A program made the translations under genes and the position numbers. A DNA stretch of 64,000 nt from Mycobacteriales bacterium. GTDB lineage: Bacteria > Actinomycetota > Actinomycetes > BP-191. Below, one piece after another: positions 822-36,314 of the stretch (position 1 is the first letter of the stretch; every line of letters starts with the position of its first letter). The notes beneath the pieces were generated by a model. That model was not told the DNA's origin, made no database searches, and saw nothing but the letters and a program-made list of their open reading frames with translations. Location: the NCBI GenBank assembly GCA_035714365.1, contig DASTMB010000037.1, positions 159,647 through 223,646 on the forward strand. The letters run 5' to 3'.

Positions 822-2227
822 CCGAGAACCTGGCGAAGGTGCTGTTCGGGCCGCGGCCGCGGCGCGGCGTGGTGCTGGGGCTGCGGGTGCCGCAGCTCGC
901 TGTCCTCGTCGCCGGCGGCGCGGTGGCGACGGCGCTGCTCGGCCGGGGCCCGGCTGGGTCCCTCGCCGCACTCGTGGTCGCGGTCACGGCGGCCGGGGTG
1001 GCGCTGCTGCCGATCGGTGGGCGGCACGGTGACGAGTGGCTGCCGGTGTTGGCCCGCTACGCGACCCGGCCCCGCACGGCGCGGCGGCGCGTCGGCGCGC
1101 CGCCGGGCGGCGCGGCTGTTCTGGAGGTGCCGGGGGCGCGGCTGGAGCTGACGGCCGTCGAGGTGGCGGGTGGGCGGCGGGTCGGGGTGGTCGTCGACTC
1201 GCGGCGGCGGACGGTGACGGCGGTGGCGGCGCTGCGCGGCGCCGGGTCGCTGGCGCTGCTCGAACCCGGCGAGCAGTGGCGGCGCGGGCAGGGGTTCGCG
1301 GCGCTGCTCGCCGCACTCGGTCGGGACGGCGCGGCGGTCTTGCAGGTGCAGTGGGTGCACCGGACCCGCCCGATGCCCACCGTGGAACTGGACCGGGTCG
1401 CCGCGCCAGTGGCGCCGTCGCGGTGGGCGGCGGCCGACGCCTCCTACCGGGGACTGCTGGACACCGTCGGCGGGGAGCTGGTGCGCCACGACATGTTCCT
1501 CACGGTCACCGTCCGCGGCCGCGCCGGGGATCTCGACCCGCTGCTGCGCGAGTTGGCGACGGTGCAGGACAGCGCCGACGCGGCGGGCATCACCGTGACG
1601 GGGTGGCTGCCGCCGCGGCTGCTCGGCGCGGCGGTGCGCACCGGGTACGACCCCGGCGCCGTGGCGGTCGTCGCGGCGCGCGACGACGACCCGGACACGG
1701 CCGGCGTGCACCCCGGGGTAGCCGGGCCGGCGGCGACCCAGGAGGGGTGGCGGTGGTTCGCGTGCGACGGGGCGGTGCACGCCACGTACTGGGTCGCGGA
1801 GTGGCCGCGGGTGCCGGTCGCGGTGGACTTCCTCGCGCCGCTGCTGGTCGAGCTGCGGTGCGCGCACACCGTCGCGGTGGTGGCGCAGCCGCTGTCGTCG
1901 CGGGCGGCGCAGCGCGCGACCCGCGCCGCCCGCGCGACTGACCTGGCGGACGCGGACCTGCGGGCGCGGCTGGGGCAGCTCGACGGCGCGCGGGACGACG
2001 CGCAGGCCGACGCCGCGGACCAGCTCGACGCGGACCTCGCCGCCGGGCACACCCTGTTCCGGTTCCACGGCCTGCTCACCGTCACCGCCCCGACCCCCGA
2101 CGCGTTAGCGGCGGGCTGCGCGGAGGTGGAGCAGGCGGCGGCGCGGGCGCACCTGGACCTGCGCCGCCTCTACGGGCAGCAAGCCGAGGCGTTCACCTGG
2201 ACCCTGCCGGTCGGGGTCGGGCCATGA
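818..2227 (+). CDS. Conjugal-transfer membrane protein, possibly the N-terminal part of a split VirB4/TrbE-like component
   Basis: GTG start overlaps the upstream stop. Two hydrophobic helices near the N-terminus (LGLRVPQLAVLVAGGAVATALLG; LAALVVAVTAAGVALLPIG). Stop overlaps the ATG of the downstream Walker-A ATPase (ATGA at 2224-2227). No Walker motif of its own. Confidence 0.5.
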   Translation: MTENLAKVLFGPRPRRGVVLGLRVPQLAVLVAGGAVATALLGRGPAGSLAALVVAVTAAGVALLPIGGRHGDEWLPVLARYATRPRTARRRVGAPPGGAAVLEVPGARLELTAVEVAGGRRVGVVVDSRRRTVTAVAALRGAGSLALLEPGEQWRRGQGFAALLAALGRDGAAVLQVQWVHRTRPMPTVELDRVAAPVAPSRWAAADASYRGLLDTVGGELVRHDMFLTVTVRGRAGDLDPLLRELATVQDSADAAGITVTGWLPPRLLGAAVRTGYDPGAVAVVAARDDDPDTAGVHPGVAGPAATQEGWRWFACDGAVHATYWVAEWPRVPVAVDFLAPLLVELRCAHTVAVVAQPLSSRAAQRATRAARATDLADADLRARLGQLDGARDDAQADAADQLDADLAAGHTLFRFHGLLTVTAPTPDALAAGCAEVEQAAARAHLDLRRLYGQQAEAFTWTLPVGVGP

Positions 2228-3459
2228 CCGGCCGGCTGCCGTGGCAACTCGCCAGCACCGCCCAGCTCGCCGCCGCCCACCCGTGCCCCAGCGGCGGCGG
2301 CCCCGACGTGCCGGGCGCGCTGATCGGCGTCGACCAGCACGGGGCGCCGTTCTGCTTCGACGCGTTCGCCCTCTACGCGGCGCGGCGGTTGACGAACCCG
2401 AACATGCTCGTCGTCGGGGAGATCGGCGCCGGGAAGTCGGCGCTGGTCAAGACGCTGCTGTGGCGGCAGCAGGCGTTCGGGCACGCCGCGTGGGTCGCCG
2501 ACCCGAAAGGCGAGTACGGGCCGCTCGCCGCCGCGTCCGGCGTCACCCCGATCCGCCTCGACCCCGCCGGCGGCGCGCGGCTCAACCCGTTCGACAACGA
2601 CGACCACACCACCCCGGCGCAGCACGGGCCGCTGCTCGCCGCGCTCGCCGCGACCGCGGCCGGGCGGCCGCTGCGCCCCACCGAACACGCCGCCGCCGAC
2701 GTGGCGCTGACCGCCGCCGCCCGCCGCGGCCCGCTCCTGCTCCCCGCCGTCGTCGACGCCCTCCTCGACCCGGCCGAACCCGACGCCGCCGGGCTGCACC
2801 TGAGCGTCGACCGGCTCGCCGACGAAGGCCGCGACGTCGCGCTGGCGCTGCGCCGGCTGTGCCGCGGTGACCTCGCCGGGCTGTTCGACGGACCGACGAC
2901 GGTGCGGCCCCGCCACGACGACCCGCTCGTCGTCCTCGACCTGTCCGCCATCTACCAGCGTGCCCGCGACGCGCTGCCGCTCGCCATGACCTGCGCCACC
3001 GCCTGGTTACAGCACGCCGTCACCGCCGCCACCGCCCCGCACCGCTACGTCGTCCTCGACGAGGCGTGGGCGCTGCTCGCGCATCTGGACACCGCCCGCT
3101 GGCTGCAACAGTCCACGAAACTCGCCCGCGCCCGCGGTGTTGCGCACCTCATCGTGCTGCATCGCCTCTCCGACCTCACCGCCGCCGGCGACGCGCACTC
3201 CGAAACCGTCGCGCTCGCCCGCGGGGTGCTCTCCGACACCGGCGTCCGCGCCCTCTACCACCAGCCGCACAGCGAACTCGCCGCCGCCGCGACGCTGCTC
3301 GGGCTCAGCGACGCCGAAGCGGCGATCCTGCCCCACCTCGACCCCACCATCGGACTCTGGCTCATCGGCGACGCCCACCAGCTCGTCGCGCACCGCCTCG
3401 CCCCCGCCGAGCGGCCCATCGTCGACACCGACGACCGGATGATCGGCGACACCGCGTGA
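2224..3459 (+). CDS. VirB4/TraE-like conjugation ATPase (P-loop NTPase domain)
   Basis: Walker A VVGEIGAGKSALVKT and Walker B YVVLDEAWALL. Start and stop are both translationally coupled to neighbours (2224-2227 and GTGA at 3456-3459). Confidence 0.7.
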   Translation: MTGRLPWQLASTAQLAAAHPCPSGGGPDVPGALIGVDQHGAPFCFDAFALYAARRLTNPNMLVVGEIGAGKSALVKTLLWRQQAFGHAAWVADPKGEYGPLAAASGVTPIRLDPAGGARLNPFDNDDHTTPAQHGPLLAALAATAAGRPLRPTEHAAADVALTAAARRGPLLLPAVVDALLDPAEPDAAGLHLSVDRLADEGRDVALALRRLCRGDLAGLFDGPTTVRPRHDDPLVVLDLSAIYQRARDALPLAMTCATAWLQHAVTAATAPHRYVVLDEAWALLAHLDTARWLQQSTKLARARGVAHLIVLHRLSDLTAAGDAHSETVALARGVLSDTGVRALYHQPHSELAAAATLLGLSDAEAAILPHLDPTIGLWLIGDAHQLVAHRLAPAERPIVDTDDRMIGDTA

Positions 3460-5120
3460 ACCCCCGATCCAACCTGAATCACAAGCCCGCCGGCGACGCG
3501 GACACCACCGCCGCGCTGGTCGTCCTCGCCGCCGCCGCAGTCCTCCTACTCGCCGCGGCGCTTACCTGGGCGGCCGGCACCGGGGCGGCGCTCGCCACCG
3601 GCCGCGGCTGGCCCGCCCTCCCGGCCGGGGACGCGCCCGGCGCACTGCTGCGCCTCCCCCACCACCTCACCGACCCGGCCGCGGCGTGGCCCGACCCCTA
3701 CCGGCGCCACCTGCCCGGCCCGGTGCCCTACTACGCCGCGGCGCTCACCCTGCTCACCGCCGCTGGACTGCCGGCCGCCGCCGCGGCGCGGCGCTACCGC
3801 AGCCGGACACCGCAACGCCGGGCGCAGCCGTGGGCGCGCCGCGCCGAGGTTCGGCCGCTGCGCGTCCACGGCACCGCGGAGCCGGGACGGCTGCTGCTCG
3901 GGCAGCTCGGCCGCACCCGCCTCGCCGCGGAACCGCACCGCTCACTGCTCGTCTGCGCGCCCACCCGCGCCGGCAAGACGACCCGCATCGTCATACCGAA
4001 CGTGCAGGCGTGGAACGGGCCGGTGCTAGTCACCAGCGTCAAACCGGACGTGCTACACGCCACCGCCGACGCCCGCGCCGCCCGCGGCCCGGTGCTGCTG
4101 TTCGACCCCACCGGCTCCACCGGGATCGACAGCGTCAAATGGAGCCCGCTGCTCGGCTGCACCACCTACGCCGACGCCGAGCGGGTCGCGCGCTGGCTCA
4201 CCGACGCCGCCGCCGAGAACCGGTCCTCGGACAACGCCCGCTTCTGGGAACAGCTCGGCGCGAAACTCCTCGCGCCGCTGCTCTACGCCGCCGCCGGCAC
4301 CGGCCGCCACATGATCGACGTCGCCCGCTGGGTCGACCGCCGCGCCACCGCCGAACCCGAAGCCGCCCTACTCGGCCTCGGCGACCCCGACGCGCTCGAC
4401 GCGTGGGCCGCCAGCCGCGCCCGCGAAGAACGGCAACGGGAAAGCGTCTACGCCACCGCCGAAACGGTGCTCCGCGCCATCACCAGCCCCAGCGTCCGGG
4501 CCACCACCACCATCCGGCCCGAGGACCACGCCGACGAGCGCGTGTTCGACCCGGCGACGTTCCTCGACCGCGCCGCCACCCTGCACGTCGTCGCGCCGCC
4601 GCACGAACAAGACCGGCTCCGGCCCCTGTTCGAGGCGATCGTGCAGACCGTGCTCCGCGAGGCCGTCACCCGCCACCTCGCCACCGGGCAACCGCTCAAC
4701 CCGCCGCTGCTCGTCGTCCTCGACGAAGCCGCGAACATCGCCCCGCTGCGCGACCTCGCCCGCCACGTCAGCACCTGCGCCGCGCTCGGCGTCACGTTCC
4801 TCACCATCTGGCAAGACCTCGCGCAACTCCACCACCTCTACGGCGCCGAAGCCCGCACCATCGCGAACAACCACACCGGGCGGCTGTTCCTCGGCGGCAA
4901 CGCCGACCTCGACACCCTCACCACCCTGTCGCAGACCATCGGCGACACCACCCGAACCCGCGCCAGCACCACCATCGCCGCGCGGCACCGCTCCACCACC
5001 TACGCCGAACACACCGAACGCGCCGCCCCCGCCGACCAACTCCGCCAACTCCCCCTCGGCCAGGCGCTCCTCCTCTACGGAGGACTCCCACCCATCCGCG
5101 TCCGCCTGCCGCGGCCCTGA
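3456..5120 (+). CDS. Type IV coupling protein (VirD4/TraG/TcpA family)
   Basis: N-terminal TM helices; Walker A LLVCAPTRAGKTT; Walker B LLVVLDEAANIAPL. GTG start overlaps the upstream stop. Confidence 0.75.
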   Translation: MNPRSNLNHKPAGDADTTAALVVLAAAAVLLLAAALTWAAGTGAALATGRGWPALPAGDAPGALLRLPHHLTDPAAAWPDPYRRHLPGPVPYYAAALTLLTAAGLPAAAAARRYRSRTPQRRAQPWARRAEVRPLRVHGTAEPGRLLLGQLGRTRLAAEPHRSLLVCAPTRAGKTTRIVIPNVQAWNGPVLVTSVKPDVLHATADARAARGPVLLFDPTGSTGIDSVKWSPLLGCTTYADAERVARWLTDAAAENRSSDNARFWEQLGAKLLAPLLYAAAGTGRHMIDVARWVDRRATAEPEAALLGLGDPDALDAWAASRAREERQRESVYATAETVLRAITSPSVRATTTIRPEDHADERVFDPATFLDRAATLHVVAPPHEQDRLRPLFEAIVQTVLREAVTRHLATGQPLNPPLLVVLDEAANIAPLRDLARHVSTCAALGVTFLTIWQDLAQLHHLYGAEARTIANNHTGRLFLGGNADLDTLTTLSQTIGDTTRTRASTTIAARHRSTTYAEHTERAAPADQLRQLPLGQALLLYGGLPPIRVRLPRP

Positions 5121-11848: not shown

Positions 11849-11863
11849 GATTCAGCGCGAATC
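11849..11863. repeat. 15-bp dyad GATTCAGCGCGAATC (copy 3)
   Basis: Exact copy in the divergent promoter region 11771-11988. Confidence 0.6.
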
Positions 11864-13381: not shown

Positions 13382-14500
13382 TCAGCCTCCCGGCGGCGGG
13401 GGGAGGGGAACATCGTAATGCGGGTCCCCGTCGGTTCGGCACTGTACGGCGTCCTGCTGCTCGGGCACCCACGGGCAGACGGGGGCGACCTCTTCCTGGA
13501 CCTCGAATCCGGGCACCGCGGAGACGCTGAGCACGTCGGCGTTCACCGGTGACGTGGTGCAGGTCGGCTGTCCGTCGATCGGCACGCACGCCCCGACCTC
13601 CCCGTCGGGCAGCGCGCCCGGCAGTCGCGGCAGCCGCACGCCGGTCACGAGCCGGCGGGCCGCTGCTGCCGGTGCCCGGCGCAGCAGCCGGCGCGCGGTG
13701 CGGGTCACCCCCACCGCGTCGCCGGTCGCGACCGCGGCGGCGGCGTCGCCGACACCATCGAGGACCCGGGCGACGGCGCGGGGGACCCGGTGCAGCGAGA
13801 TCGGCACCGGCAGTGGCTGTGTGGCGACGGCGGTCATGAAGACGCCGACCAGCGCCGCGTTCGCCACCGCGACCATCGCCGTCGACACCGCCCCGGGTGC
13901 GGCCGACCGGCGCCGAAGCCGGCCCCGCAGCGCGGCGAGGAACGCGGCGATGAGCCCGCCCCGTTGGCGCACGGCGTGCAGCGCCCGCGTCACCCGTTTC
14001 CGCGTCGCGGCCTCGGTCAGTCCCGTCTCGTCCGCGAGTTGGGAGTACGGCGCGGCGTCCACGTAGCGGCGGCGCAGCAACTCCTGCACCTCGGCGGGCA
14101 GCTCCTCGTAGGCCATGACGACGCGCGTCGCCGCGGTGACCCGCGGGGTCGCCCATAGCGAGACCGCGCCGTCCGGCGGATACGGGACCAGGGCCGGGCG
14201 GCGCCGCGCCCGCCGCCGCGCGTCCGTCGCCGCGTGACGTGCCGCGGTGAACAGCAGCGCGCGCCGGTGGTCGTCGTCAGTCAGCGCCGCCCACGACCGG
14301 TACACCGCGAGGTAGGCGCGCTGCGCCACGTCGTCACACTCGCTGCGATCCACGTACGCCAGTGACGACAGGAAGCGGTAGAGACCCGCGACCGTCTCGG
14401 CGTGGAACTCCTCGAACTCGCGCCCGATCCCCCGCGCGGTCTGACACGCGACCACCGACTGCCCCTTCACGTCCACGCCGCAGGCTGCGGCCACCCGCAC
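13382..14500 (-). CDS. ECF sigma factor fused to a TM helix and a Cys-rich C-terminal domain
   Basis: Region 2 (FEEFHAETVAGLYRFLSSLAYVDRSECDDVAQRAYLAVYRSW). Region 4 (LPAEVQELLRRRYVDAAPYSQLADETGLTEAATRKRVTRALHAVRQR). Hydrophobic segment AVSTAMVAVANAALVGVFMTAV. C-terminal domain with six Cys. Confidence 0.6.
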   Translation of the reverse strand: MRVAAACGVDVKGQSVVACQTARGIGREFEEFHAETVAGLYRFLSSLAYVDRSECDDVAQRAYLAVYRSWAALTDDDHRRALLFTAARHAATDARRRARRRPALVPYPPDGAVSLWATPRVTAATRVVMAYEELPAEVQELLRRRYVDAAPYSQLADETGLTEAATRKRVTRALHAVRQRGGLIAAFLAALRGRLRRRSAAPGAVSTAMVAVANAALVGVFMTAVATQPLPVPISLHRVPRAVARVLDGVGDAAAAVATGDAVGVTRTARRLLRRAPAAAARRLVTGVRLPRLPGALPDGEVGACVPIDGQPTCTTSPVNADVLSVSAVPGFEVQEEVAPVCPWVPEQQDAVQCRTDGDPHYDVPLPPPPGG

Positions 14501-23286: not shown

Positions 23287-23383
23287 GTCCAGCCGCCGTA
23301 ACAACGCGCGCGCTCGGTCGTACTGCTCAACGAGCGGGCGCCCACCGCCTTCCCTCGATAGCGTGCCCGGGCGCCCGTCCCGT

Positions 23384-23914
23384 TCAGCCGACAGCTCCGC
23401 TGGGGTGGTGGTCGGCGAGGCGCTGGCGCAGGCGGCGACGTAGCTCAACGGTGCGGTCTCGGAGGTGTCGTGCGGTCGTTCCGCGCGCCGCGGCCATGTC
23501 CTGGTAGCCCGTGCCGTGGTGGTACCGCTCGACCAGGAGCACCTGGTCCTGCGGATGTAGCTCGGCGACCGCCGAGCGCACCGCGTCCACGTTCTCCGCT
23601 CGGACCACGTGATCCAACGGCGTACGCCGCGGGCACGGCACATTGACGTCGTACCCCGGGACTGACACCTCGCGGGGGCGACGGCGCGCCACATCGACCG
23701 CCGCTCGCCGGAGCAGAACAGCGAGGAACGCATCCGGGCTGGTCACCGTCGGCCACGCCCGCCACAAGTCGAGGCACGCCTCCTGCCACGCGTCCTCGAC
23801 ATCCGACCGCTCCGCGAGGAGCCGGCGCAGCGTCGCCATCGCCCGCGGCGCCGCCTCGCGGACAAACGCCGTGTACGCGGCATTGCCGCGGCCCGTCGTC
23901 GATGGTGCGTTCAC
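23384..23914 (-). CDS. ECF sigma factor
   Basis: Region 2 (AWQEACLDLWRAW) and region 4 (LHPQDQVLLVERYHHGTGYQDMAAARGTTARHLRDRTVELRRRL). Confidence 0.65.
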   Translation of the reverse strand: MNAPSTTGRGNAAYTAFVREAAPRAMATLRRLLAERSDVEDAWQEACLDLWRAWPTVTSPDAFLAVLLRRAAVDVARRRPREVSVPGYDVNVPCPRRTPLDHVVRAENVDAVRSAVAELHPQDQVLLVERYHHGTGYQDMAAARGTTARHLRDRTVELRRRLRQRLADHHPSGAVG

Positions 23915-24060
23915 GTTCCCCCGTCCCCCTCGCCAACCACGTCCCGTACCGGTTGCCCGATCTCGTTCGCGATGCGGCGCGGCACCCCTGCACGCCCATC
24001 ACGAGCGGACGCGCCGCGAACATGCCGTTGGCGCGGCCGCGCCGCCGCGCATCGCGGTGC

Positions 24061-24510
24061 TCACCAGCGCAGCGTCTCCAGCCGCCGACCTGTCTCCTCG
24101 ACACGCCAGAACCGCCAGCCGTTGGTCTGCGCGGCGGCCCGCTCGGGGTTCAGCGCCGCAACGACCGCGCGAGCTGCCCCGGTCGCCGAGGTGAAGGACT
24201 GGTCGGCCAACGGCTGACTGGTCACGACGACCCGCTTGGTGGCCTGAAGGTAGGTGCCGGTGATCCGCTGACCGCGGTACTCCGCGTAGATCGCGACGGG
24301 ACCCCACGGGTCGCGTGGCGGTGCGGCATGGGTTTCGTGGTCGCGGGTGTAGTCCTTGACCGCGCGCGCCACGATTTCCGATTCGCTCACCTCGAACATG
24401 CGGGCCGCGAACCGCACCAGCCGCAGCGTGGCAACGTCGAGCCGCACCGTTCCACCGCTGACCACTGGACGAGCGGCGCCGCCCCCGGCCGGGGTTGCCT
24501 TCGAATTCAC
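24061..24510 (-). CDS. Small protein with an N-terminal RHH/CopG-like segment and a conserved C-terminal NGWRFWR motif (tandem paralog 1)
   Basis: VRLDVATLRLVRFAARMFEVSESEIVARAV (RHH-like). GTYLQATKRVVV ... SATGAARAVVAALNP ... TNGWRFWRVEETGRRLETLR. Start overlaps the stop of paralog 2 (24507-24510). Confidence 0.5.
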   Translation of the reverse strand: MNSKATPAGGGAARPVVSGGTVRLDVATLRLVRFAARMFEVSESEIVARAVKDYTRDHETHAAPPRDPWGPVAIYAEYRGQRITGTYLQATKRVVVTSQPLADQSFTSATGAARAVVAALNPERAAAQTNGWRFWRVEETGRRLETLRW

Positions 24511-24953
24511 GTTGAATCTGCCATCGTGTTCGAGTGCTTAGCCGCCGTGGCGTTAGGAGGCATGTACCGCACGGTGTCCAGACGCGCGCCAGAGTCCGCT
24601 ATTCGCCAGAAGTGCCACCCGTTGGTCTGCGTGTGGGAGCGCCGCGGGTTCAGCATCTCGACCACCGCGCGCGCCGCGCCCGACGGAGACCGGAATGACC
24701 GCTCCGTCGACTCGCCCGGGTTCACGACTAGGCGCCGCGTGGCCGGGAGGTACGTGCCGTCCACACGGACCCCCGCGTACTCGCAGAACACCGGCACCGG
24801 CTCCCAACGGTGCGCCGGGCCGCTACCTCGGGCACCGATCTGCGCCACCGCCCGGATCACAACCTGCGAGTCCGTGATGCCGTGAAGCCGTGCGGCGAAC
24901 CGGACCGCGAGCGCGGTCGCCTGATCGACCACGATGGTGTCGCCGTAGTTCAT
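24507..24953 (-). CDS. Small protein with an N-terminal RHH-like segment and a conserved C-terminal NGWHFWR motif (tandem paralog 2)
   Basis: ALAVRFAARLHGITDSQVVIRAV. GTYLPATRRLVV ... SPSGAARAVVEMLNP ... TNGWHFWRIADSGARLDTVR. Collinear with paralog 1. Confidence 0.5.
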   Translation of the reverse strand: MNYGDTIVVDQATALAVRFAARLHGITDSQVVIRAVAQIGARGSGPAHRWEPVPVFCEYAGVRVDGTYLPATRRLVVNPGESTERSFRSPSGAARAVVEMLNPRRSHTQTNGWHFWRIADSGARLDTVRYMPPNATAAKHSNTMADST

Positions 24954-25094
24954 GGCGCGAGTGTGCTGGGGGCGGCCGTAAGGCGCCGCGCGTGTCGCCG
25001 AGGATGTTCACGCCCCCTCCGCTTGGCATGAACGCGCCAGCAGCCAGGACGCCCTCGCGGCCGCACGAACATCACCACCCCGTGCGGGTGCGGG

Positions 25095-28000
25095 CTAGCG
25101 ATCGAGTGGTTCCGGCAGGTCGCGGGCGGTGTCGTCGCGCAGGAGGAGCTGCGCGTGCTCGACGGCGGCGAGTTCCGGGTGCTCTGGGTTGGCTCGGTCG
25201 AGGGGGCCGAGGGGCTGGTCGGGGTCGGTGATGCCGTGGGTGAGGCGGTAGGTCTCGATGGTGTGGGCGGCGTGGCGCCAGATGCCGCGCCGGTAGGGGT
25301 CGTGGGGGCGGGGGCCGAGGGTGGTGGTGAGGTAGCGGGGCGGGTTGTGTTCGATGTTGGTGAGGCGTTGGTGGGCGCGGTGGTTGATTTCGTCGCGGGC
25401 CTGGTCGGCTGCGCGCCGCTCGGGGGCGGTTGCGTGTTCGTGGTGGAGCCGCTGCTGTTCGTGGGCTTCGAGGGCGTGCGCGCGTTGCAGCGCGGCGGTC
25501 TCGCGTTGGGTGGCGTGCTGGACGCGGCGTTGGGCGGCGCGGAGTTGGTGGGCGTGGTCGCGGCGGCGGCGTGGGTGGAGGCGTTGCCGGCGGGGCTGGT
25601 CACGTAGGTGGCCTATGGCCTCGTGGCCGGCGGCGGCGTCGAGCGCGGCGTTGGCGGCGTCGGTGTAGGCGGCGGCGAGTTCGGCGCGCCGGTTGGGGAG
25701 CATGGCGCGCTGGGCGGCGTCGCCGCGGCTGACGGCGGCGCGGAGCTGGTCGTCGGTGGCGTCGGCGAGGGGCCGGTTGTCCTCGTCGATGGGCGTGGCG
25801 GCGCCGGTGGCGTCGCGGTGCTGGTGGAGGGCGTGGCGGGCTTGGTGCCAGTCGTCGTGCCGGGCGGGCGGGTCGGCGCTGGTGGGGGCGGGGCCGAGGG
25901 GGCGGTGGTCGGTGTCGGGGATGTGCCAGCGGTCGCGGTAGGTCTGGATGTGGCCGGCGGCATCGCGCCAGGTGCGGCGGCGGGTGACGTTGTTGGTGGG
26001 TGGGGGGCCGAGGGCGGTGAGGTGGGGGGCGGTTCCGGCGCGGGCGGCGCGTTCGGCGGTGATGCCTTGGCGGCGGAGGTGGTCGCGGTAGGCGGCGTCC
26101 GCGTCGTCCGCCGCGGCCGGGCTGTGGTGGGGGTCGGCGGCGTGGTCGGCGTGGGTGGCGCGCAGGACGGCGGTGGTGTTGTCGCCGGGGCCGCCGTCGT
26201 GGAGGTCGAGGGCGGCGCGTTGGGCGCGGGAGCGGGTCGCGGCGGTGGTGAGCTGGGTGAGCGGCGGCGGGTCGCCGGCGGGTGGGTGGTGTTCGGCGCG
26301 CAGGAGCTGGGTGTCGTGGTCGCGGTCGGGGTTGGTGGCGTAGAGCTGGGTGTGTTGGCGGCCGCGGGAGAGGGTGGTGTAGAGGCTTTCCCGGTAGAGG
26401 GCGTCACCGGCGGCGTCGACGAACACGTGCTCGGCGCTGAGCCCTTGGGCGCGGTGCAGGGTGTGCGCATAGCCGTGGTCGAGGCCGCCGCGGCGCAGGT
26501 AGCGGGCGCTGACCTGGTGGTGGGTGCCGTCGGGGAGGGTGACGGTGAGGGTGCCGGCCTCGGGGTCGACGGTGGTGACGGTGCCGAGGTCGCCGTTGAG
26601 CAGGCCGCTGTTGCGGTAGTCGTTGCGCCGCGCGGCGACGAGGTCCCCGACGGCGAAGCGGCGTTCGCCGAGCGGGCCGGCGGTGACGACGAGGTCGGGG
26701 CCGGTGAGCAGCCCGGCGTCGGTGAGGCGGGCGCGGGCGCGGGTGTTGAGGTCGGCGACGGCGCGGCGGCGGGTGGCGAGCATGACGTGCGCCTCGGGTG
26801 ATTCAGCCAGAATCCGGGCGGCCGGTGTGCCGGTGCTGGTGGCGGTGGTGTGGAGGGCGGTCCACCAGTCGGTGACGAGCTGGTCGCGGGCGGCGTCGAC
26901 GTCGGGTTGCACGGTGACCCGCCCGTGGTCGACGTAGGCGTCGAGGGCGGCGTGGACGACGGGCGGGGCGGCGTCGCGGATGGCGCCCAGCGCGGCCCGT
27001 TCCCAGCCGTGGACTTGGCGCATGTTGCGGGTGAGGGTGACCGGCGCGAGTCGGTGCGCGAGGGCCCGGAACAGCCCCCCGGCGTCGATCTCGGGGAGTT
27101 GCCGGTAGTCACCGACGAGGACGAGCTTCGCCTGGTCCCGCCGCGCGTAACCGTGCAGGGCGGCGAGATCGCGGCTGCCGAGCATCCCGGCCTCGTCGAC
27201 GACGATCACGCTGCCGGGCGGCATCGGCCCGTGCCGTGGGTCGTCGAGCTCGGCGAGGAGGCGGGTGATGGTCCAGGTGGTGATGCCGGTGGCGTCGGTG
27301 AGCCGGGCGGCGGCGCGGGCGGCGACGGCGGCGCCGACGACGTGGTGCCCGCCGGCGGTCCAGGCGTCGTGTACGGCGCCGAGGAGGTGGGTCTTACCGG
27401 CGCCGGCGACGCCGATGACGACCTCGACTCCGGCGCCGCCGGTGAGGAGCCGGACGGCGGCGAGTTGCTGCTCAGGGTTGAGGTGGTGCCGTTCCAGGGT
27501 GGCGCCGAGGACGGCGGCGGGCACGACCCCGAGCCCGTCGTGGGCGCGGTCGGCGGCTTGGGTGATCACGGTCCGTTCGAGGTGGAGGAGGTCGGTGGTG
27601 GTGTAGCGGGTCTCGCCGTGCCCGGGAGGGCGGGTGTCGCCGTGGCGTTCGTCGGGGACTGCGCGCAACGCCACCACGTCGCGGTGCCGGAGGAACGCGG
27701 CGGCGTCCGCCTCGATCGCCTCGATCGGGTCGCCGTCGACGCGCGCGACGCAGAGTGCTTGGACGACGTCGCGGCGGTGGAAGTGCGACGCGGCGGCGGT
27801 GAGCCCAGTCGGGGCGAGCATCGCCGCCTGCTCCTGCGCCCGGTCGACCGGCGCCCGGTGGTGGCGGTGCAGCAGCGCGTAGCGGGTGGGGGCGGTGAAC
27901 CCGAGCTGGTCGGCGCGGGCCTGCCAGTCGGCGGCGAGGCGGTGCTGGTCGTAGGGGTGCTTCCGGCGCCGCGTGTCCAGGGTGGCGACTTGCGCGGCAC

Positions 28001-28766
28001 GCGGCCCGTCGAGGCCGAGTTCGGCGAGGCGGGCCTGGATCTCCTCCGCGCGTTGCGAGAAGGCGCGCAGCACCTCGGCGGGGATGCCCTCGACCTCGGA
28101 CAGGCCGTTGCCGCGCACCGTCCAGGCGAGGCCGAGGTCGCGCACGTTGTGCCGGAGTTGGGAGCGGTAGAGCATCCCCGCGGTCTTGGCTTCCCGGAAC
28201 AGGGCGCGCCCGTCGACGGCGTACCAGCGGCCGTCACTGCCCTGCACGGTGTTCGCGGTGACGACGTGGGTGTGCAGGTGCGGGTCCCCAGCACGGGAGA
28301 CGCGGTGTCGGAACGCCGCGCCGACGAGGCCCCGGCCGGGTTCGACCGTGACCCCGTCCTTGCCGCGCCGGACGTGGCCGGCGTGCCGGTCGAGGTAGCC
28401 GAGCGCGGCGGCGACAGCGTGGTCATGCGCGGCGCGGATCTGCTCCGCGAGTTCGGGCTGCCCCAGCGCGGCGAGGAGGCTCAGCGACTTCGGGGCGTTG
28501 AACGTGAGGTCGTAGCCGCGGACCCGGCCGGCGCGGCGCTGCGCGAGCAGGTCCACGCCGGTGCCGGGCTGGTAGCCATCGAGGAGGGTACGCAGCGGGT
28601 CGGCGGTCACTTCCCCGGTGAGGCCGAGCTGGTGCCGGCCGGCGCCGACCCAGTAGCCGGGCGCCTCCCCGGCGCCGAGGTAGTACGCCTCGGTGGTGCG
28701 CGCCACCTTGTTCAGGTAGTAGTCCTCGCCGCGGCCGCCGGCGCCGAGGACCTGAATGCTCAACAT
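25095..28766 (-). CDS. MobF/TrwC-family relaxase fused to a C-terminal helicase (TraA/TraI-like conjugative relaxase)
   Basis: N-terminal Tyr pairs (EDYYLNK ... EAYYLGAGEAPGYWVGAG). Three-His motif GDPHLHTHVVTANTVQ. Helicase Walker A VVIGVAGAGKTHLLG and Walker B VIVVDEAGML. Long C-terminal region. Confidence 0.85.
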   Translation of the reverse strand: MLSIQVLGAGGRGEDYYLNKVARTTEAYYLGAGEAPGYWVGAGRHQLGLTGEVTADPLRTLLDGYQPGTGVDLLAQRRAGRVRGYDLTFNAPKSLSLLAALGQPELAEQIRAAHDHAVAAALGYLDRHAGHVRRGKDGVTVEPGRGLVGAAFRHRVSRAGDPHLHTHVVTANTVQGSDGRWYAVDGRALFREAKTAGMLYRSQLRHNVRDLGLAWTVRGNGLSEVEGIPAEVLRAFSQRAEEIQARLAELGLDGPRAAQVATLDTRRRKHPYDQHRLAADWQARADQLGFTAPTRYALLHRHHRAPVDRAQEQAAMLAPTGLTAAASHFHRRDVVQALCVARVDGDPIEAIEADAAAFLRHRDVVALRAVPDERHGDTRPPGHGETRYTTTDLLHLERTVITQAADRAHDGLGVVPAAVLGATLERHHLNPEQQLAAVRLLTGGAGVEVVIGVAGAGKTHLLGAVHDAWTAGGHHVVGAAVAARAAARLTDATGITTWTITRLLAELDDPRHGPMPPGSVIVVDEAGMLGSRDLAALHGYARRDQAKLVLVGDYRQLPEIDAGGLFRALAHRLAPVTLTRNMRQVHGWERAALGAIRDAAPPVVHAALDAYVDHGRVTVQPDVDAARDQLVTDWWTALHTTATSTGTPAARILAESPEAHVMLATRRRAVADLNTRARARLTDAGLLTGPDLVVTAGPLGERRFAVGDLVAARRNDYRNSGLLNGDLGTVTTVDPEAGTLTVTLPDGTHHQVSARYLRRGGLDHGYAHTLHRAQGLSAEHVFVDAAGDALYRESLYTTLSRGRQHTQLYATNPDRDHDTQLLRAEHHPPAGDPPPLTQLTTAATRSRAQRAALDLHDGGPGDNTTAVLRATHADHAADPHHSPAAADDADAAYRDHLRRQGITAERAARAGTAPHLTALGPPPTNNVTRRRTWRDAAGHIQTYRDRWHIPDTDHRPLGPAPTSADPPARHDDWHQARHALHQHRDATGAATPIDEDNRPLADATDDQLRAAVSRGDAAQRAMLPNRRAELAAAYTDAANAALDAAAGHEAIGHLRDQPRRQRLHPRRRRDHAHQLRAAQRRVQHATQRETAALQRAHALEAHEQQRLHHEHATAPERRAADQARDEINHRAHQRLTNIEHNPPRYLTTTLGPRPHDPYRRGIWRHAAHTIETYRLTHGITDPDQPLGPLDRANPEHPELAAVEHAQLLLRDDTARDLPEPLDR

Positions 28767-28886: not shown

Positions 28887-29188
28887 GGTTGACCAGCTCC
28901 GCGCGGTGCGCCGCCGCCGGCGTTGACCACCGCCCTGCCGGGGCCGGCATCGCCAGATGCAAGGGTGTACCGGGTCGGGCGGCCGAAGGCCGCAGCGATC
29001 GGGCGTGCCGGGGACAGGGCAGCGGGTGCGGTCGGCGGCGGCGTCCGGGTCGGCGGTGAGGGTCGTGGTGGCATGGCGGGCAGGGTCGGCGGCGGGGTTG
29101 ACCGGGCGTTGACCAGGGCGGCGCGGCGATCGATTCAGCGTGAGTCGGGGCATGCGAAAGCCGCCGCCCCGGGTTGACCAGGGCGGCG
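28887..29188. repeat. Iteron cluster of five GTTGACC(A/G)(G/C) repeats (two identical 16-mers GTTGACCAGGGCGGCG), plus one GATTCAGCGTGAGTC dyad variant at 29132-29146; candidate oriT region
   Basis: Direct repeats at 28887, 28922, 29098, 29108 and 29171. Located immediately upstream of the relaxase start, between relaxase and ssb. Confidence 0.5.
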
Positions 29189-29209: not shown

Positions 29210-29644
29210 CTACGCGGCAGTGGGCTCCCGCCGCGTCTCGGTCCCGGCGGCGGGCTGCGTGGTGTGCTGGTCGGCACCGGCGCGGGTGCTGCGCTGGATC
29301 GTCACCGTCGCCATGCGCAGCGACGCGGCGACCTCGTCCGCGTCGATCTCGTACCGGTACTGCTTCACACCGTCCTTGTCGTCCCAGGACCGCTGCACGA
29401 GCCGCCCGTGGACGACGACGCGGCTGCCGCGCTCCACGGACTCGGCGACGTGCTCGGCCAGCGCCCGCCACGCCACCACGTCGATGAACGTCGTGTTCGC
29501 GTCCTTCCACTGCTTGCTGTTCGCGTCGTAGTACCGCTGCGACGACGCGAGGCGGAACCGGCACCAGGCGTGCCCGCCCGGCGTGTAGCGCAGGTCCGGG
29601 TCGGCCACAACGTTGCCGGTCATGGTGATGCTGCTGTCACTCAT
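29210..29644 (-). CDS. ssb: Single-stranded DNA-binding protein
   Basis: OB-fold SSB signature: TGNVVADPDLRYTPGGHAWCRFRLASS ... DVVAWRALAEHVAESVERGSRVVVHGRLVQRSWDDKDG. Confidence 0.85.
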   Translation of the reverse strand: MSDSSITMTGNVVADPDLRYTPGGHAWCRFRLASSQRYYDANSKQWKDANTTFIDVVAWRALAEHVAESVERGSRVVVHGRLVQRSWDDKDGVKQYRYEIDADEVAASLRMATVTIQRSTRAGADQHTTQPAAGTETRREPTAA

Positions 29645-29714: not shown

Positions 29715-31523
29715 TCAGGCGACGCGGCGGGACCGCGACGCCCGGGTCGGCTTGCTGGTGCGCTTGGGGTTCTGCGGCTTGGGCTGCTGCCGGGTGCCGG
29801 ACTTGCGGTTGCGCCGCTTCGCCAGCGACACCGGCTCGGTCGGCTCCGCGTCCGGCTCGGCCCCCGGCTTGTCCTCGGTCGGCTCCGGCTCGCTGCCGGG
29901 GTCCGCGTCGGGCTCGGGCTGCTCGTCGCCGGTCCACGTCCGCGCGTCGTCGCTGCCCGCGTTGGCGGCGGTGGTGCCGTCGGGGTCCGGCTGCTCGGCG
30001 GGACCGTCGATCAGGGCGCGCTCGGCCGGGCTGGGCTCGTAGCCGAGGGCGGTGAGGAGGTCGAAGTGGCGCTGCTCCTGGGCGTCGAGTGCCCGCACCG
30101 GATAGTAGGTGCCGCTGGGCACCCACTTCTCGACCAGGGCGAAGCACACCGCGAGCGCGGCCCGCCACAGGTTCTGCTTGCTCACCTGCGCGTAGGTGAC
30201 GAGCGGTTCGGCGTCGTCCTCGTCCGGTTCGGGCAGGCCGAGGAGGGAGCGCGCGTCGGTGCTGAGGTCGTACTCGTTGGCGTAGCCGACGATCTGCTGC
30301 GCGACGTGCTCAGTGACGAGGGCCTGCGGCGGCTTGCCGGTGGTGAGCAGGGTGCAGACGAAATCGGCGCGCCGCTGCTTGGCGGCGCGCAACTCCTCCC
30401 GCTGCTGCTCCCGGCGGGTCTGCTCGGCCTCGCGCTGGGCCTGCTCGGCCTCGGCCTTCTCGCGCTGCGCCTTCTGCTCGGGCGTCTCCTCGGCGGGGAC
30501 CGCCTTCGCCTTCCCGTTCACCGTCGCCGCGCTGCTCGCGCCGTCGGCGGCGGCGGTGCTGGCGGTGGCGGGCTGGTGGCGGGTGGGGTCGGTGCAGACG
30601 TAGACGACCTGGGCGACGCTGCTGACGGTGGCGGCGTGGCAGGGCTCGCTGGCGTGGTCGTCCACCGCGACGTTGACCTGCCCGGGGAGGCTGCCCAGCG
30701 GCTTCTCGGGCCGTCCGCTCCACGTGCCGTACGGCGGGTACGGCACGAGGGTGAGGTTCTGCTTCTTCAGCGCGGCGATGGTCTTGGCGACCCTGCGCTC
30801 AGCCTCCTCGTCGGCGACGGCGTTGCGCGCGGCGTTGACGATGTAGCCGCGCCCGGCGTTGAACGCCTTGAGCAGACGCGTCTGGTCCTTGATGCGGGCG
30901 AGTTCGAAGCCCTCCTCGAAGGTGATCTGCTCCTTGATGAGCGCGGCGAGCACGTCGTCGGGGAGGCGGAGGATGGACAGGCGGCGCTGGACGGAGGGCT
31001 GCGAGAGGCCGACCAGGGCGGCAATGTCCTCCTGCTTGCGGATGCCGTGGTCCTGGGCGAGGGAGGCGAGTTCGCGGGCCTCCTCGACCGGCGTGAGGGC
31101 CTTGCGGTGCAGGTTCTCGGCGATGCGGTCCACGTCCCTGGCGAGCGTGTCGGCGCCGTCGATCACTTCGCAGGTGGCGGTGGGGATGTTCGCAGCGGTG
31201 AGGGCGAGGTAGCGGCGCTCCCCGAACACGATCAGGTAGCCGCCGTCGGGGTCGGGCTTGACGCGCAGCGGCGTGAGCAGTCCGTGCTTCGTGATCGACG
31301 CGGCGAGGGCGGCGATGTCGCCGTAGTCCTCCCGCTTGTTCTTCGGGTCGGGGTGCAGGTCGCTGAGCGGGATCTGCACGAACGTCCGCTCGACCGGCTG
31401 CGCGGGCGGGGCGCCGTTCGGGCTGGTCGCGCGGGTCTTGCCGTTGGCGCGGGGCGTGCCGTTGCTGCTGGTGGTGCCGTTGGTGTTGGTCTTGCTGGGT
31501 CGGTTCTTGGTGGTGGTCGCCAT
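29715..31523 (-). CDS. ParB-like nuclease-domain (ParB/Srx) protein with a long acidic, Pro-rich C-terminal tail
   Basis: ATG at 31523 with AAGGAGAA RBS. ParB N-domain IPLSDLHPDPKNKRE ... LLTPLRVKP ... IVFGERRYLA. Mid-protein coiled-coil segment (EQKAQREKAEAEQAQREAEQTRREQQREELRAAKQRR). Acidic C-terminus. The upstream 170 codons of the track ORF are Arg/Pro junk. Confidence 0.75.
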   Translation of the reverse strand: MATTTKNRPSKTNTNGTTSSNGTPRANGKTRATSPNGAPPAQPVERTFVQIPLSDLHPDPKNKREDYGDIAALAASITKHGLLTPLRVKPDPDGGYLIVFGERRYLALTAANIPTATCEVIDGADTLARDVDRIAENLHRKALTPVEEARELASLAQDHGIRKQEDIAALVGLSQPSVQRRLSILRLPDDVLAALIKEQITFEEGFELARIKDQTRLLKAFNAGRGYIVNAARNAVADEEAERRVAKTIAALKKQNLTLVPYPPYGTWSGRPEKPLGSLPGQVNVAVDDHASEPCHAATVSSVAQVVYVCTDPTRHQPATASTAAADGASSAATVNGKAKAVPAEETPEQKAQREKAEAEQAQREAEQTRREQQREELRAAKQRRADFVCTLLTTGKPPQALVTEHVAQQIVGYANEYDLSTDARSLLGLPEPDEDDAEPLVTYAQVSKQNLWRAALAVCFALVEKWVPSGTYYPVRALDAQEQRHFDLLTALGYEPSPAERALIDGPAEQPDPDGTTAANAGSDDARTWTGDEQPEPDADPGSEPEPTEDKPGAEPDAEPTEPVSLAKRRNRKSGTRQQPKPQNPKRTSKPTRASRSRRVA

Positions 31524-31606: not shown

Positions 31607-32545
31607 TCACGGCGTCGCCTGGGCGGTGAGGGGGTCGGTGGGGGTGCCGGTGGTGGCGGCGATGCGGTCGAGGACGGCCCGGGCGGTGGTGGTGACGGCG
31701 CGGGCGCTGGCGGCGAGGACGTCGAGGTCTCCGGCTGCCCACTGCGCGACGTAGGGGAGGGAGTAGTCGTCGCTGGGCAGGCCGCTGGCGTGGCAGACGA
31801 TGTAGGCGACGGACTCGGCTTCGACCTCGCCGCGTTCGCGGGGGGTGGTTCCCTCGGCGTGCAGGAGGACGTGCGCGAGTTCGTGGGCGAGGGTCTTGCA
31901 CGCCTGGGCGGCGCTGAGGTCGGCGCGGACCCGGACTTCGCGGGTGGCGAAGTTGGCCCACCCGTTGGCGTGGCCGCAGTCGCCGCGATTCAGCGCGTAT
32001 CCGGCGTCGCGGATCTGCGCGGCGAGGGCGTCCCACAGTCGGCCGGGGTCGGCGCCGTCGAGGAGGAGCGGCGGCACGTCGGGGATGGGGTCGCCGTCGG
32101 TCTGCGACACGTCGAACACGTAGGCGATGCGGAAGCCGCGCAGCCGTCGGCGGGGCGGGGTGGCGTCGGGCCTCTCGCCGGTGCTGGCGCTGGGGGTGCT
32201 CTGGTCGTCGTCGGGCTGGTCGATCCGGTACCGCAGGGGCGCGAAGATCGCGATGCCGCGCTCTCCCTTGCGGACCTGCCGTCCGACGCGCTGCCAGGTG
32301 CGGTATCCGGCGACGCGGGTCGCGTCGGGGCGCTGCATGACGATCAGGAGGAGGTTGTGCAGCGAGTAGTCATGGAACCGGGCGGCGGCGGTGAGCATCG
32401 CCTGCCACTGCTGGCCGTGGACTAGCCCGGCGACGCGTTCGGTGAGTTGCTCGTGGAGGGCGGCGATTCGGTCCGAATCGCGAACGGCGGCGGCGACGCG
32501 TCGGCCGCGCTGCGCGGCTCGGGCGCGGGTTGTGGTGGTAGCCAC
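31607..32545 (-). CDS. ArdC-like antirestriction protein (N-terminal ssDNA-binding ArdC domain + C-terminal zincin-like metallopeptidase domain)
   Basis: FHDYSLHNLLLI (ArdC-N). HELAHVLLH HExxH motif in the C-terminal domain. Confidence 0.75.
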   Translation of the reverse strand: MATTTTRARAAQRGRRVAAAVRDSDRIAALHEQLTERVAGLVHGQQWQAMLTAAARFHDYSLHNLLLIVMQRPDATRVAGYRTWQRVGRQVRKGERGIAIFAPLRYRIDQPDDDQSTPSASTGERPDATPPRRRLRGFRIAYVFDVSQTDGDPIPDVPPLLLDGADPGRLWDALAAQIRDAGYALNRGDCGHANGWANFATREVRVRADLSAAQACKTLAHELAHVLLHAEGTTPRERGEVEAESVAYIVCHASGLPSDDYSLPYVAQWAAGDLDVLAASARAVTTTARAVLDRIAATTGTPTDPLTAQATP

Positions 32546-36117: not shown

Positions 36118-36219
36118 CGCGCAGAACACGGCTGCCAGGCTGTGGGCGCGCGCTGACGCGTTCGTGCAAACCCGCTGGTTCGGATGGAGTGTGGTGTTAG
36201 GCCGCGCGGTGAGATCCAA

Positions 36220-36255
36220 CATATCGGTACGCGGTGACGCGCGACCGCCGATATG
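36220..36255. promoter_or_regulatory. Inverted repeat CATATCGG-N20-CCGATATG in the lower-GC leader of the DUF3800 gene
   Basis: 8-bp arms; lies about 60 nt upstream of the TTG start at 36315. Confidence 0.35.
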
Positions 36256-36314
36256 TCCGATATTCCTGCAATACTCTGCGGTTCTGGCGCAGTAATTAGG
36301 AACTGAGGAGACCG

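Follow-up and report, generated by a model that had tools for sequence, protein, structure and literature searches.

A tandem pair of proteins joining an RHH-like segment to a divergent RAMA domain on an actinobacterial conjugative element

Analysis of a 64-kb stretch of actinobacterial DNA (the window) revealed that two adjacent genes, A and B, encode small proteins whose C-terminal domain is, by sequence comparison, a divergent RAMA domain (Restriction enzyme Adenine Methylase Associated; PF18755), preceded by an N-terminal segment that is RHH-like (ribbon-helix-helix) with support of moderate strength. Both genes are carried by a T4SS-type ICE, and the combination of RHH and RAMA is widespread in actinobacteria and apparently undescribed so far. 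The best-supported reading of A and B, held with moderate confidence, is that these RHH-RAMA proteins control the transcription of element genes in a sequence-specific manner, probably as repressors or autoregulators. A regulatory role had been predicted originally, and it is favoured by the position of such genes across the family, as the first in small operons, and by palindromes resembling operators in a sister ICE; for the pair in the window it is a proposal. The features discussed are listed in Table 1.

Table 1. Coordinates of genes, domains and intergenic regions in the window.
Feature	Position (nt)	Strand	Details
Transfer ATPases	2224..5120	(+)	VirB4-like AAA_10 2224-3459; T4CP (T4SS-DNA_transf/TrwB) ~3456-5120
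ECF-type sigma	23384..23914	(-)	176 aa (151 aa in JGI call); downstream of B
B-sigma gap	23915..24060	(-)	146 nt; imperfect inverted repeat 23968-23983 / 24041-24056, meaning uncertain
Paralog B	24061..24510	(-)	149 aa from GTG 24510 or 134 aa from GTG 24465
B, RAMA domain	~24064-24312		
B, RHH segment	~24340-24453		
Paralog A	24507..24953	(-)	148 aa, pI 10.1; ORF, GC3, family profile
A, C-terminal tail			17 aa after RAMA; unconserved
A, RAMA domain	24561-24812		~residues 48-131; hhalign spans residues 52-134
A, RHH segment	24828-24941		~residues 5-42
Relaxase-A gap	24954..25094	(-)	141 nt between relaxase stop and A start; possible promoter/operator region
MobF/TrwC relaxase-helicase	25095..28766	(-)	1223 aa; E 1e-83; upstream of A
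oriT candidate	28888..29179	(-)	SSB-relaxase gap; hairpin GCGGCCTTCGGCCGC 28979-28993
SSB	29210..29644	(-)	144 aa
ParB_N / HTH_ParB protein	29715..31523	(-)	602 aa
ArdC-type anti-restriction protein (ArdcN + Peptidase_M78)	31607..32545	(-)	312 aa; first gene of string

The two paralogs of 148-149 aa described in the original prediction, with their shared motifs, were recovered as open reading frames with 46% identity over 131 aa (BLASTP, E 5e-39). Both proteins are basic (pI of B, 10.2-10.5), both match the family profile (A, E 3.7e-44; B, E 6.2e-47), and the motifs GTYL.AT.R, GAARAVV and TNGW.FWR are common to the pair and kept in the alignment of homologs. GC3 of A and B (0.83-0.85) lies far above GC at codon position 2 (0.56-0.58), as expected at a genome GC of ~73%, which argues that both are genuine genes. 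Each protein is closer to other family members (A to P0002, 53%; B to P0003-5, 55-58%) than to its partner (46-48%); A and B thus belong to different sublineages, and recent tandem duplication as the origin of the pair is ruled out.

The 4-nt overlap of A and B holds if B begins at GTG 24510 (GTGA), but start of B at the in-frame GTG 24465, which is the JGI gene call and gives an N-terminus closer to the family and to A, leaves a 41-nt gap. Because the overlap depends on the start codon, and a good Shine-Dalgarno sequence was found at neither of the two starts, the translational coupling of A and B is possible and uncertain. The predicted read-through into the ECF sigma gene is compatible with the shared strand and with the lack of a terminator-like site (a scan of 23300-25200 found neither intrinsic terminators nor consensus sigma-70 promoters), but the 146-nt gap leaves the sigma gene uncoupled. 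The sigma gene itself was identified by matches to TIGR02937 (52.7 bits, cut-off 42.9) and Sigma70_r2 (E 9e-9). It is an orphan, its only match at E<=1e-10 being itself, so a link between A/B and sigma gains no comparative support.

The C-terminal domain, which spans ~85 residues of A and B, had been tentatively likened to domains attached to restriction-modification (R-M) proteins, and profile-profile comparison together with family-wide Pfam matches identified it as RAMA. The domain of A aligned with a set of 15 canonical RAMA domains at an hhalign probability of 98.3% (E 1.2e-14, 77 columns). Individually, A (21.6 bits, E 2e-4) and B (18.7 bits, E 0.0018) both fall below the Pfam gathering threshold for PF18755 of 35.2 bits; among 120 family members, 87 matched PF18755 at E<=0.01, the best (E 2.9e-8) at about the Pfam threshold. 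Conversely, the family HMM matched the C-termini of HSDR_N+RAMA proteins, nine of ten of which pass the Pfam threshold at 39-65 bits. The RAMA motifs S-x-S/T-x-AA and QTNGW-x-FW are present in the alignments, with no variation at N111, G112, W113 and W116. RAMA, a module that binds dsDNA and is carried by many restriction enzymes and adenine methylases, is characteristic of R-M proteins, and its known fusions include methyltransferase, nuclease, McrB, SeqA and deubiquitinase modules (PMC4738411). [quoted passage not shown] By homology, the RAMA domains of A and B should likewise contact the dsDNA backbone.

The prediction of an RHH N-terminus likewise gained support of moderate strength, from profile matches that are weak and consistent, from a G-x-S/T turn and from two predicted helices. 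Against the PDB, the N-terminal profile matched RHH proteins only, led by VapB26 (E 0.06) and followed by SeqA-N (E 0.2), CopG, FitA and Rv0298; each of these matches (E 0.06-0.5) is weak alone. Pfam RHH_1 matched four of the 120 family members (best E 1.5e-4), and RHH_10, VAPB_antitox and PSK_trans_fac also matched some of them. The AF2 model of A (pLDDT 80) predicts an extended N-terminus followed by helices at residues 11-24 and 28-41 (pLDDT 94-95), a topology that fits RHH, in which the strand is expected to form in the dimer alone. The turn that caps helix 2, G-x-S/T-x-x-E, reads HGITDSQ in A and FEVSESE in B, with Glu in place of Gly, compared to a family consensus of FGVSESE.

As had been proposed, the pair lies on an element, next to the relaxase. 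This element is a T4SS-type ICE with an integrase, a VirB4-like ATPase, VirB6/TrbL, a T4CP, ArdC, ParB and SSB. The integrase lies just left of the window, together with an excisionase-like HTH_17 protein, WhiB, SLT and TrbL. A and B sit near the end of a run of co-directional genes, ArdC-ParB-SSB-TrwC-A-B-ECF sigma. Neither R-M genes nor methylases were recognised in the 64-kb window.

Comparison across genomes placed A and B in an RHH-RAMA family with 362 cluster representatives. Almost all of these are actinobacterial and single-copy, and the family is frequent in Streptomyces, Actinoplanes, Frankia and relatives of these. Searches retrieved two family members among 72,556 plasmid records and none among phage records, which rules out that this is a plasmid or phage gene family. 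Instead, the survey of genomic context showed that the family gene recurs as the first gene of small operons encoding conflict systems. In nine Micromonosporaceae loci, it leads a cassette that bears a promoter and encodes a PIN toxin, whose gene it overlaps by 4 nt in most cases, and this PIN-linked subclade alone has an acidic C-terminal tail, SDDWDSPEVNESIADDFG. At ~8 loci, the family gene heads a FAM-p125-p367-DUF4365 cassette beside a Type I R-M system. Further associations include Type I HsdR/HsdMS neighbours (6-8 loci), an N6-MTase/S fusion preceded by the family gene (L033), a Type ISP enzyme ~7 kb from the family gene on a plasmid, and an integrase before the family gene (4-5 loci). 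The occurrence of the family as the leading gene of toxin-antitoxin and R-M-linked cassettes, and in this case on a conjugative element, suggests that it may serve generally to control mobile and defence islands in actinobacteria.

Evidence bearing on operators came from the sister ICE, L108, whose relaxase is 59% identical to that of the window and is adjoined by two family genes. The L108 locus contains seven copies of TGGCGT-N4-ACGCCA (0.96 expected), of which five cluster just upstream of each family gene, and in a motif-agnostic palindrome test the observed score was reached in two of 100 shuffles. In contrast, the window contained six matches to this consensus against 6.6 expected, and a lone match with two mismatches in the relaxase-A gap (25024-25039) was non-significant. 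Since GC-only half-sites dominate, raw palindrome counts had no power and were replaced by a composition-weighted statistic, and this test also detected no operator-like palindromes in the window; no significant repeat was found in 24954..25094. The 12-mer GGCATGWWCGCG has exactly two occurrences in the 64 kb, one in the gap on either side of the pair, but was rejected as a shared operator; it was derived from those two sites, and 298 of 300 shuffled gap pairs match equally well or better.

Several other functions were weighed against transcriptional regulation. The RHH fold and the location of the pair, whose genes directly follow that of the TrwC relaxase in the same orientation, would suit accessory proteins of the relaxosome such as TraY, TrwA or PcfF; a pair also adjoins the L108 relaxase. 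In this role A and B would bind oriT near nic, bend the DNA and help TrwC to nick and load, and the tandem arrangement would mimic F TraY, in which two RHH repeats are fused. We nevertheless consider this unlikely. The other 57 family loci contained no homolog of this relaxase, and no relaxase of any kind among the immediate neighbours of the family gene; of the three closest ICEs only L108 has the family (L107 and L109 do not, nor do the more distant L110-L112). The conserved oriT candidate moreover lies ~4 kb from the pair, in the SSB-relaxase gap. It includes a block, GTACACCCTTGCATCTGGCGATGCC (28946-28970), that is invariant in four ICEs save one G/A position, and five GGTCAAC iterons, which are also present in ICEs without the family. 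Finally, the L108 palindromes that would be the sites of the family proteins (7069-7663 and 9412) fall outside the L108 oriT-candidate gap (2031-2322). The shared strand and string with ArdC, ParB and SSB, typical early establishment genes, points in another direction, that A and B act as anti-restriction or establishment proteins on DNA or restriction enzymes directly, with a RAMA domain derived from R-M systems coating or marking incoming DNA or competing with host RAMA nucleases for substrate. The ~10-12 of 57 family loci with a defence protein as immediate neighbour and the typical home of RAMA fit this proposal; the support for the anti-defence role originally suggested is contextual (ArdC on the same strand, a family often beside R-M genes). 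Such activity is, however, unsupported for any RAMA protein, the RHH module points to sequence-specific binding rather than coating, the family mostly heads operons like a regulator or an antitoxin, and it is nearly absent from plasmids and absent from phages; we regard direct anti-restriction as improbable.

The nine PIN cassettes, in which the family protein with its acidic tail takes the antitoxin slot, and the related relaxase locus L112, which has a 60-aa + PIN module in the post-relaxase slot, raise the possibility that A and B are orphan or remnant VapB-like RHH-RAMA antitoxins whose toxin was lost and which now are anti-addiction modules or lack an element-specific function. This appears quite doubtful given that no PIN or other toxin gene adjoins the pair in the window, that neither protein has an acidic toxin-binding tail (the tail of A is unrelated and B is tailless) or is near the PIN-linked subclade, and that both ORFs are intact with coding-type GC3. 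It is highly improbable that A and B control the ECF sigma at the protein level, as anti-sigma or anti-anti-sigma-like factors. The pair lies directly upstream of a sigma gene with no recognisable anti-sigma gene beside it, and the L108 pair comes after a sigma-like gene, but A and B contain no anti-sigma domain or zinc-binding motif, both of their domains are DNA-binding folds, and sigma-like genes make up only 2-3 of the 108 immediate neighbours across the family. Supporting features were absent for the anti-sigma reading and equally for a partition (ParG-like) role.

Under transcriptional regulation, we infer that A and B bind DNA at target promoters and repress them. An RHH dimer, either homomeric or formed by A with B, would insert its β-ribbon into the major groove of an operator, while the RAMA domains would clamp the flanking duplex, where they may also sense adenine methylation. 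In this way A and B would adjust their own expression and that of the downstream ECF sigma, and possibly also that of the establishment and transfer string after entry into a new cell, similar to Reg576. A more speculative extension, which we think has a small chance of being correct, is that RAMA makes these RHH repressors sensitive to adenine methylation of their own operators, so that they act as an epigenetic sensor of a new host. Repression would then depend on the marks placed on the element DNA by the current host; upon encountering a different methylome, or as single-stranded or hemimethylated DNA, the element would escape a repressor that fails to bind, and the establishment genes and ECF sigma would fire until the DNA was re-marked. 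Sensing of this kind would also account for the leading position of the family gene in PIN cassettes and in operons linked to Type I R-M systems. The recurrent pairs, A with B here and RHH-only with full-length proteins in L063, L064 and L108, could form heterodimers with one or two reader domains.

To our knowledge, RAMA is often cited as a candidate N6-methyladenine reader and bacterial study has been scarce beyond CcrM. A protein of ~130 residues with RHH and RAMA would be the simplest natural setting for asking whether RAMA reads methylation and what it contributes to a protein that binds specific DNA sequences, and A and B are concrete candidate regulators of the post-transfer programme of the ICE and of the element-encoded sigma. 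If they are ordinary autorepressors, the result is no surprise but a useful annotation, turning two 'hypothetical proteins' into RHH-RAMA DNA-binding proteins.

Comparison of A and B with characterized proteins revealed relatives of each part and partial parallels to the whole. The RAMA domains of CcrM (C-terminal domain, PDB 6PBD) and human MPND are homologous to the C-terminal region of A and B, with S-x-S-x-AA...V and QTNGW-x-FW in common, but A and B differ from known RAMA proteins in placing the domain on an RHH segment of ~45 residues in a small stand-alone protein. The best PDB match to that segment, VapB26 of M. tuberculosis (PDB 5X3T), is an antitoxin; VapB antitoxins have no RAMA between RHH and tail, and A and B have no adjacent toxin or toxin-binding tail. 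TraY of F contains an internal duplication of the RHH unit, which two RHH units in A and B recall, and TraY and TrwA (R388) share with the pair both the fold and a gene beside a MobF relaxase. RAMA is, however, unknown in relaxosome proteins, the A/B family is not conserved with the relaxase, and the candidate sites in L108 are outside oriT. Like A and B, SeqA combines an N-terminal RHH-like dimerisation module with a DNA-binding domain tied to adenine methylation, but the C-terminal folds are unrelated, that of SeqA binding hemimethylated GATC, and its role is sequestration of the replication origin and not in mobile elements. Reg576 of Bacillus pumilus plasmid p576, an RHH repressor of establishment genes in the same cluster as ardC, is a model for transient post-transfer expression via repeated operators (PMC6294495). 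It has no RAMA domain and no detectable sequence relationship to A and B, and its operators are direct heptamer repeats. Nevertheless, it is, like them, a small RHH protein of a conjugative element clustered with ardC, and the clustered palindromes of L108 resemble its operator layout.

The two small paralogous genes predicted beside the relaxase, A and B, were found exactly where they had been placed, on a 335-kb contig that public records assign to a metagenome-assembled 'Mycobacteriales bacterium' genome. Against a window GC of ~0.70-0.77, their codon-position GC (GC3 0.83-0.85 versus GC2 0.56-0.58) showed the pattern of real genes, and BLASTP bore out their paralogy, aligning 131 residues at 46% identity (E 5e-39). 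Of the flanking genes, one was verified to encode a TrwC/MobF relaxase-helicase (E 1e-83) and the other an ECF-type sigma factor (TIGR02937, 52.7 bits versus a cut-off of 42.9). The 4-nt GTGA overlap proposed between A and B holds if B starts at GTG 24510 but is lost if B starts at the in-frame GTG 24465, the start chosen by one of two public gene callers, which yields a 134-aa protein whose N-terminus (MVSGGTVRLD) aligns better with that of A (MNYGDTIVVD) and with the family consensus (MxTVELD). Neither candidate start is preceded by a convincing Shine-Dalgarno sequence. B lies 146 nt from the sigma factor gene, and a scan found no terminator-like site between them.

Several lines of analysis identify the C-terminal domain of A and B, tentatively likened in the original prediction to domains of restriction-modification (R-M)-associated proteins, as a divergent RAMA domain. 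Individually, the two C-termini matched RAMA (PF18755) at 21.6 and 18.7 bits, below the Pfam cut-off of 35.2, with further sub-threshold matches to DUF4357 and, weakly, to the CcrM C-terminus. A profile of A, B and six homologs, searched against 1.84 billion proteins, retrieved 362 cluster representatives, 262 of them at E<=1e-10, most being 125-140 aa long and aligned end to end with the profile. Individual Pfam scans matched RAMA in 87 of 120 family members (best E 2.9e-8). The family HMM also matched the C-termini of larger metagenomic proteins; all ten that were scanned combined an HSDR_N restriction-endonuclease-like domain with RAMA, which in nine exceeded the Pfam threshold (39-65 bits). 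Profile-profile comparison with 15 canonical RAMA domains drawn from these HSDR_N proteins gave 98.3% probability (E 1.2e-14, 77 columns) over residues 52-134 of A. The family-wide Pfam matches, the HSDR_N proteins and the profile-profile comparison together underlie this assignment. RHH and RAMA are each already known; the apparent novelty is their combination, in which a DNA-binding or reader domain derived from R-M systems has been joined to an RHH regulator or antitoxin scaffold. A search of an incomplete literature collection found no paper describing the RHH-RAMA fusion or the family, although the architecture may already be listed in domain databases.

The pair resides on a T4SS-type integrative conjugative element (ICE), and A is next to the relaxase, as had been proposed. 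Public gene calls and precomputed Pfam annotation revealed a co-directional string encoding the anti-restriction protein ArdC, a ParB_N/HTH_ParB protein, SSB, the TrwC relaxase, A, B and the ECF sigma factor. T4CP, a VirB4-like AAA_10 ATPase and TrbL/VirB6 are encoded to the left of this string, and just beyond the window edge lie genes for an SLT transglycosylase, WhiB, an excisionase-like HTH_17 protein and a tyrosine integrase adjoining dcd. Comparison starting from the relaxase was more informative than comparison starting from family loci or the sigma factor, which has no close homolog anywhere we searched. The three closest relaxases (L107-L109, 59-64% identity) share ParB-SSB-TrwC synteny, and their SSB-relaxase gaps align with the 443-nt gap in the window. 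A 25-nt block within it is identical in all four elements save one G/A position, a GC hairpin lies just upstream of this block, and five of the 14 GGTCAAC heptamers in the window (6.5 expected) are iterated within the gap, making it the best candidate for, and probably, the oriT of this ICE family. The ICE also encodes at least three sigma-like genes, and its relatives L107-L109 have sigma-like genes of 336-381 aa close to the relaxase, suggesting that these elements encode a transcription programme of their own.

Coordinates of features in the window and in compared loci
Feature	Locus	Position	Strand
Paralog A, 148 aa	window	24507-24953	-
Paralog B, 149 aa	window	24061-24510	-
TrwC/MobF relaxase-helicase, flanks pair	window	25095-28766	
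ECF-type sigma factor, flanks pair	window	23384-23914	-
Further sigma-like gene	window	11988-12941	+
Further sigma-like gene	window	13382-14500	-
Probable oriT	window	28888-29179	-
Probable oriT	L107	7539-8000	
Probable oriT	L108	2031-2322	
Probable oriT	L109	1841-2209	
25-nt block	window	28946-28970	
GC hairpin	window	28979-28993	
Upstream family copy with in-frame TAG	L108	7122-7652	-
RHH-only ORF	L063	1170-1361	
RHH-only ORF	L064	1758-1970	
Family-PIN cassettes	L035, L037, L038, L040, L043, L044, L046, L047, L057	~9990-10860 in most	
Composite island, Type I HsdR + HsdM/S fusion versus family gene-p125-p367-DUF4365	L004, L010, L011, L017	~5000-12500	
Variants of composite island	L012, L014, L016, L048		
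STAS-sigma-70 protein	window	38740-39822	-
Low-GC patch	window	36001-38000	
DUF3800 ORF	window	36315-36899	
tRNA-Arg(gcg)	window	46056-46134	+
Glycoside-hydrolase-2 ORF	window	43200-46808	
Very large ORF	window	7850-11656	-
CBASS-like operon; 60-aa + PIN module	L112	1181-6158; 10605-11209	
Multi_ubiq-ThiF-BubE set	L111	5428-7263	

A survey of 57 genomic loci carrying the family, all from Actinomycetota (including Streptomyces, Actinoplanes, Micromonospora, Frankia and Pseudonocardia) except for L056, a Chloroflexota MAG locus whose match was weak and partial, revealed a single family copy within +-10 kb at every locus and diverse neighbourhoods with three recurring themes. In nine Micromonosporaceae loci, a PIN gene (E ~1e-20) lies directly 3' of the family gene, mostly with a 4-nt overlap, a conserved ~75-nt promoter-like block precedes the family gene, and the family proteins carry an additional acidic tail, SDDWDSPEVNESIADDFG. 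This arrangement is laid out like a VapBC toxin-antitoxin module, and a tripartite antitoxin (RHH, RAMA and acidic tail) before a PIN toxin appears to be undescribed so far. At about eight loci, mostly in Streptomyces, the family gene is oriented divergently to a Type I R-M system comprising HsdR and an HsdM/S fusion and heads a small operon encoding a 125-aa protein (p125), a 367-aa protein (p367) and a DUF4365 protein. Neither p125 nor p367 had a Pfam match; the CxxC...H...CxxCNH pattern of p367 suggests an HNH-like nuclease. The third theme is a tyrosine integrase directly upstream of the family gene, found in four or five loci. In Frankia L033, 45 nt separate the family gene from an N6-MTase/S fusion downstream, and immediate neighbours flagged by PADLOC also included DpdF, BrxH and Type I methylases. 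Among 72,556 plasmid records the family occurred in two, both times subtelomerically on linear Streptomyces plasmids, and none was found in phages. The overall picture is of a small DNA-binding protein heading cassettes in mobile and defence islands.

None of the genes neighbouring A and B in the window recurred in the 57 loci. A is nearest to family member P0002 (53% identity) and B to P0003-P0005 (55-58%), versus 46-48% between A and B, and a distance tree placed B within the mainstream clade and A on a longer branch. A recent A/B duplication was ruled out, each being closer to other family members than to its partner. The sister ICE L108 has two family genes just past the relaxase on the opposite strand: an intact downstream copy and a divergent upstream copy with an in-frame TAG exactly in the RHH-RAMA linker, which could mark a pseudogene, stem from a sequencing error or yield an RHH-only product by design. 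Similarly, L063 and L064, loci of close relatives in the family, have a short RHH-only ORF (weak match, E 0.002-0.003) just upstream of the full-length gene. Thus, in this branch a conserved full-length copy is repeatedly accompanied by a divergent or truncated one, as would suit RHH heterodimers. The family is missing from L107 and L109 and from three relaxase loci that are more distant, and is therefore an accessory, not core, part of these ICEs.

We put about even weight on A and B being RHH-type transcriptional regulators of element genes, the best-supported reading of the regulatory role originally suggested. In favour are the recurrence of family genes at the head of operons and palindromes in L108, but no operator was found in the window. 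The annotation is solid and the family sizeable, but the function of the pair in the window is a proposed one. The L108 palindrome, TGGCGT-N4-ACGCCA (16 bp), occurs seven times at <=2 mismatches versus 0.96 expected, a count reached in none of 200 shuffles; five copies form two clusters, one directly upstream of each family gene, and in one case the palindrome overlaps the probable initiation codon of the upstream family gene. Since this motif was first spotted by eye, a second, motif-agnostic and composition-weighted test was run over all half-sites and spacers; in L108 it recovered the same sites (score reached in two of 100 shuffles), and in the window it found nothing. The L108 consensus was not enriched in the window either, and a 12-mer common to both gaps flanking A/B failed an unbiased control.

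As regulators, A and B would act as RHH dimers, homo- or heterodimeric, reading an operator through the beta-ribbon, with RAMA adding DNA-backbone contacts, as in the CcrM and MPND structures (PMC9963953). RAMA may in addition read adenine methylation, its originally predicted function (PMC4738411), and putative methylation-state-sensitive repression is the most exciting reading. The closest functional precedent is Reg576 of plasmid p576, an RHH repressor encoded beside ardC. As a dimer of dimers it binds repeated operators, and under its control the establishment genes show a transient burst of expression after transfer (PMC6294495). For A and B, what the analysis established is their domain identities, their place on an ICE, the recurrence of family genes at operon heads and the L108 palindromes, from which DNA binding, its targets, the direction of regulation, heterodimerisation and sensitivity to methylation are inferred.

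The RHH fold and the adjoining relaxase make a TraY/TrwA-like role as relaxosome accessory factors attractive. This role is weakened because the family is not conserved alongside the relaxase, the candidate operators are at a distance from oriT (no L108 palindrome falls within the L108 oriT-candidate gap) and ICEs without the family have the oriT iterons too. For direct anti-restriction activity of A and B the argument is one of genomic context, and for an anti-sigma function we found no supporting feature. Descent from antitoxins, with A and B as orphans, is possible historically, although they have neither a toxin partner nor a toxin-binding tail.

Other features were observed in the window and related loci. 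One unusual polypeptide combines an N-terminal STAS domain, normally an anti-anti-sigma module, with a complete sigma-70 (regions 2, 3 and 4). A low-GC patch (0.645 versus ~0.74) holding a DUF3800 ORF may mark where the ICE ends on the right or may have been inserted later. ARAGORN predicted a tRNA-Arg(gcg) within the glycoside-hydrolase-2 ORF, indicating either an over-extended ORF or a false-positive tRNA. The ICE also contains a very large ORF (1007-1268 aa by start chosen) whose GC3 is strongly that of a coding sequence and for which Pfam gave no match. Finally, defence cargo flanks related MobF relaxases in two more distant loci: L112 carries a CBASS-like SMODS-ThiF-JAB-SAVED operon and a 60-aa plus PIN module directly after the relaxase, and L111 carries a Multi_ubiq-ThiF-BubE set.
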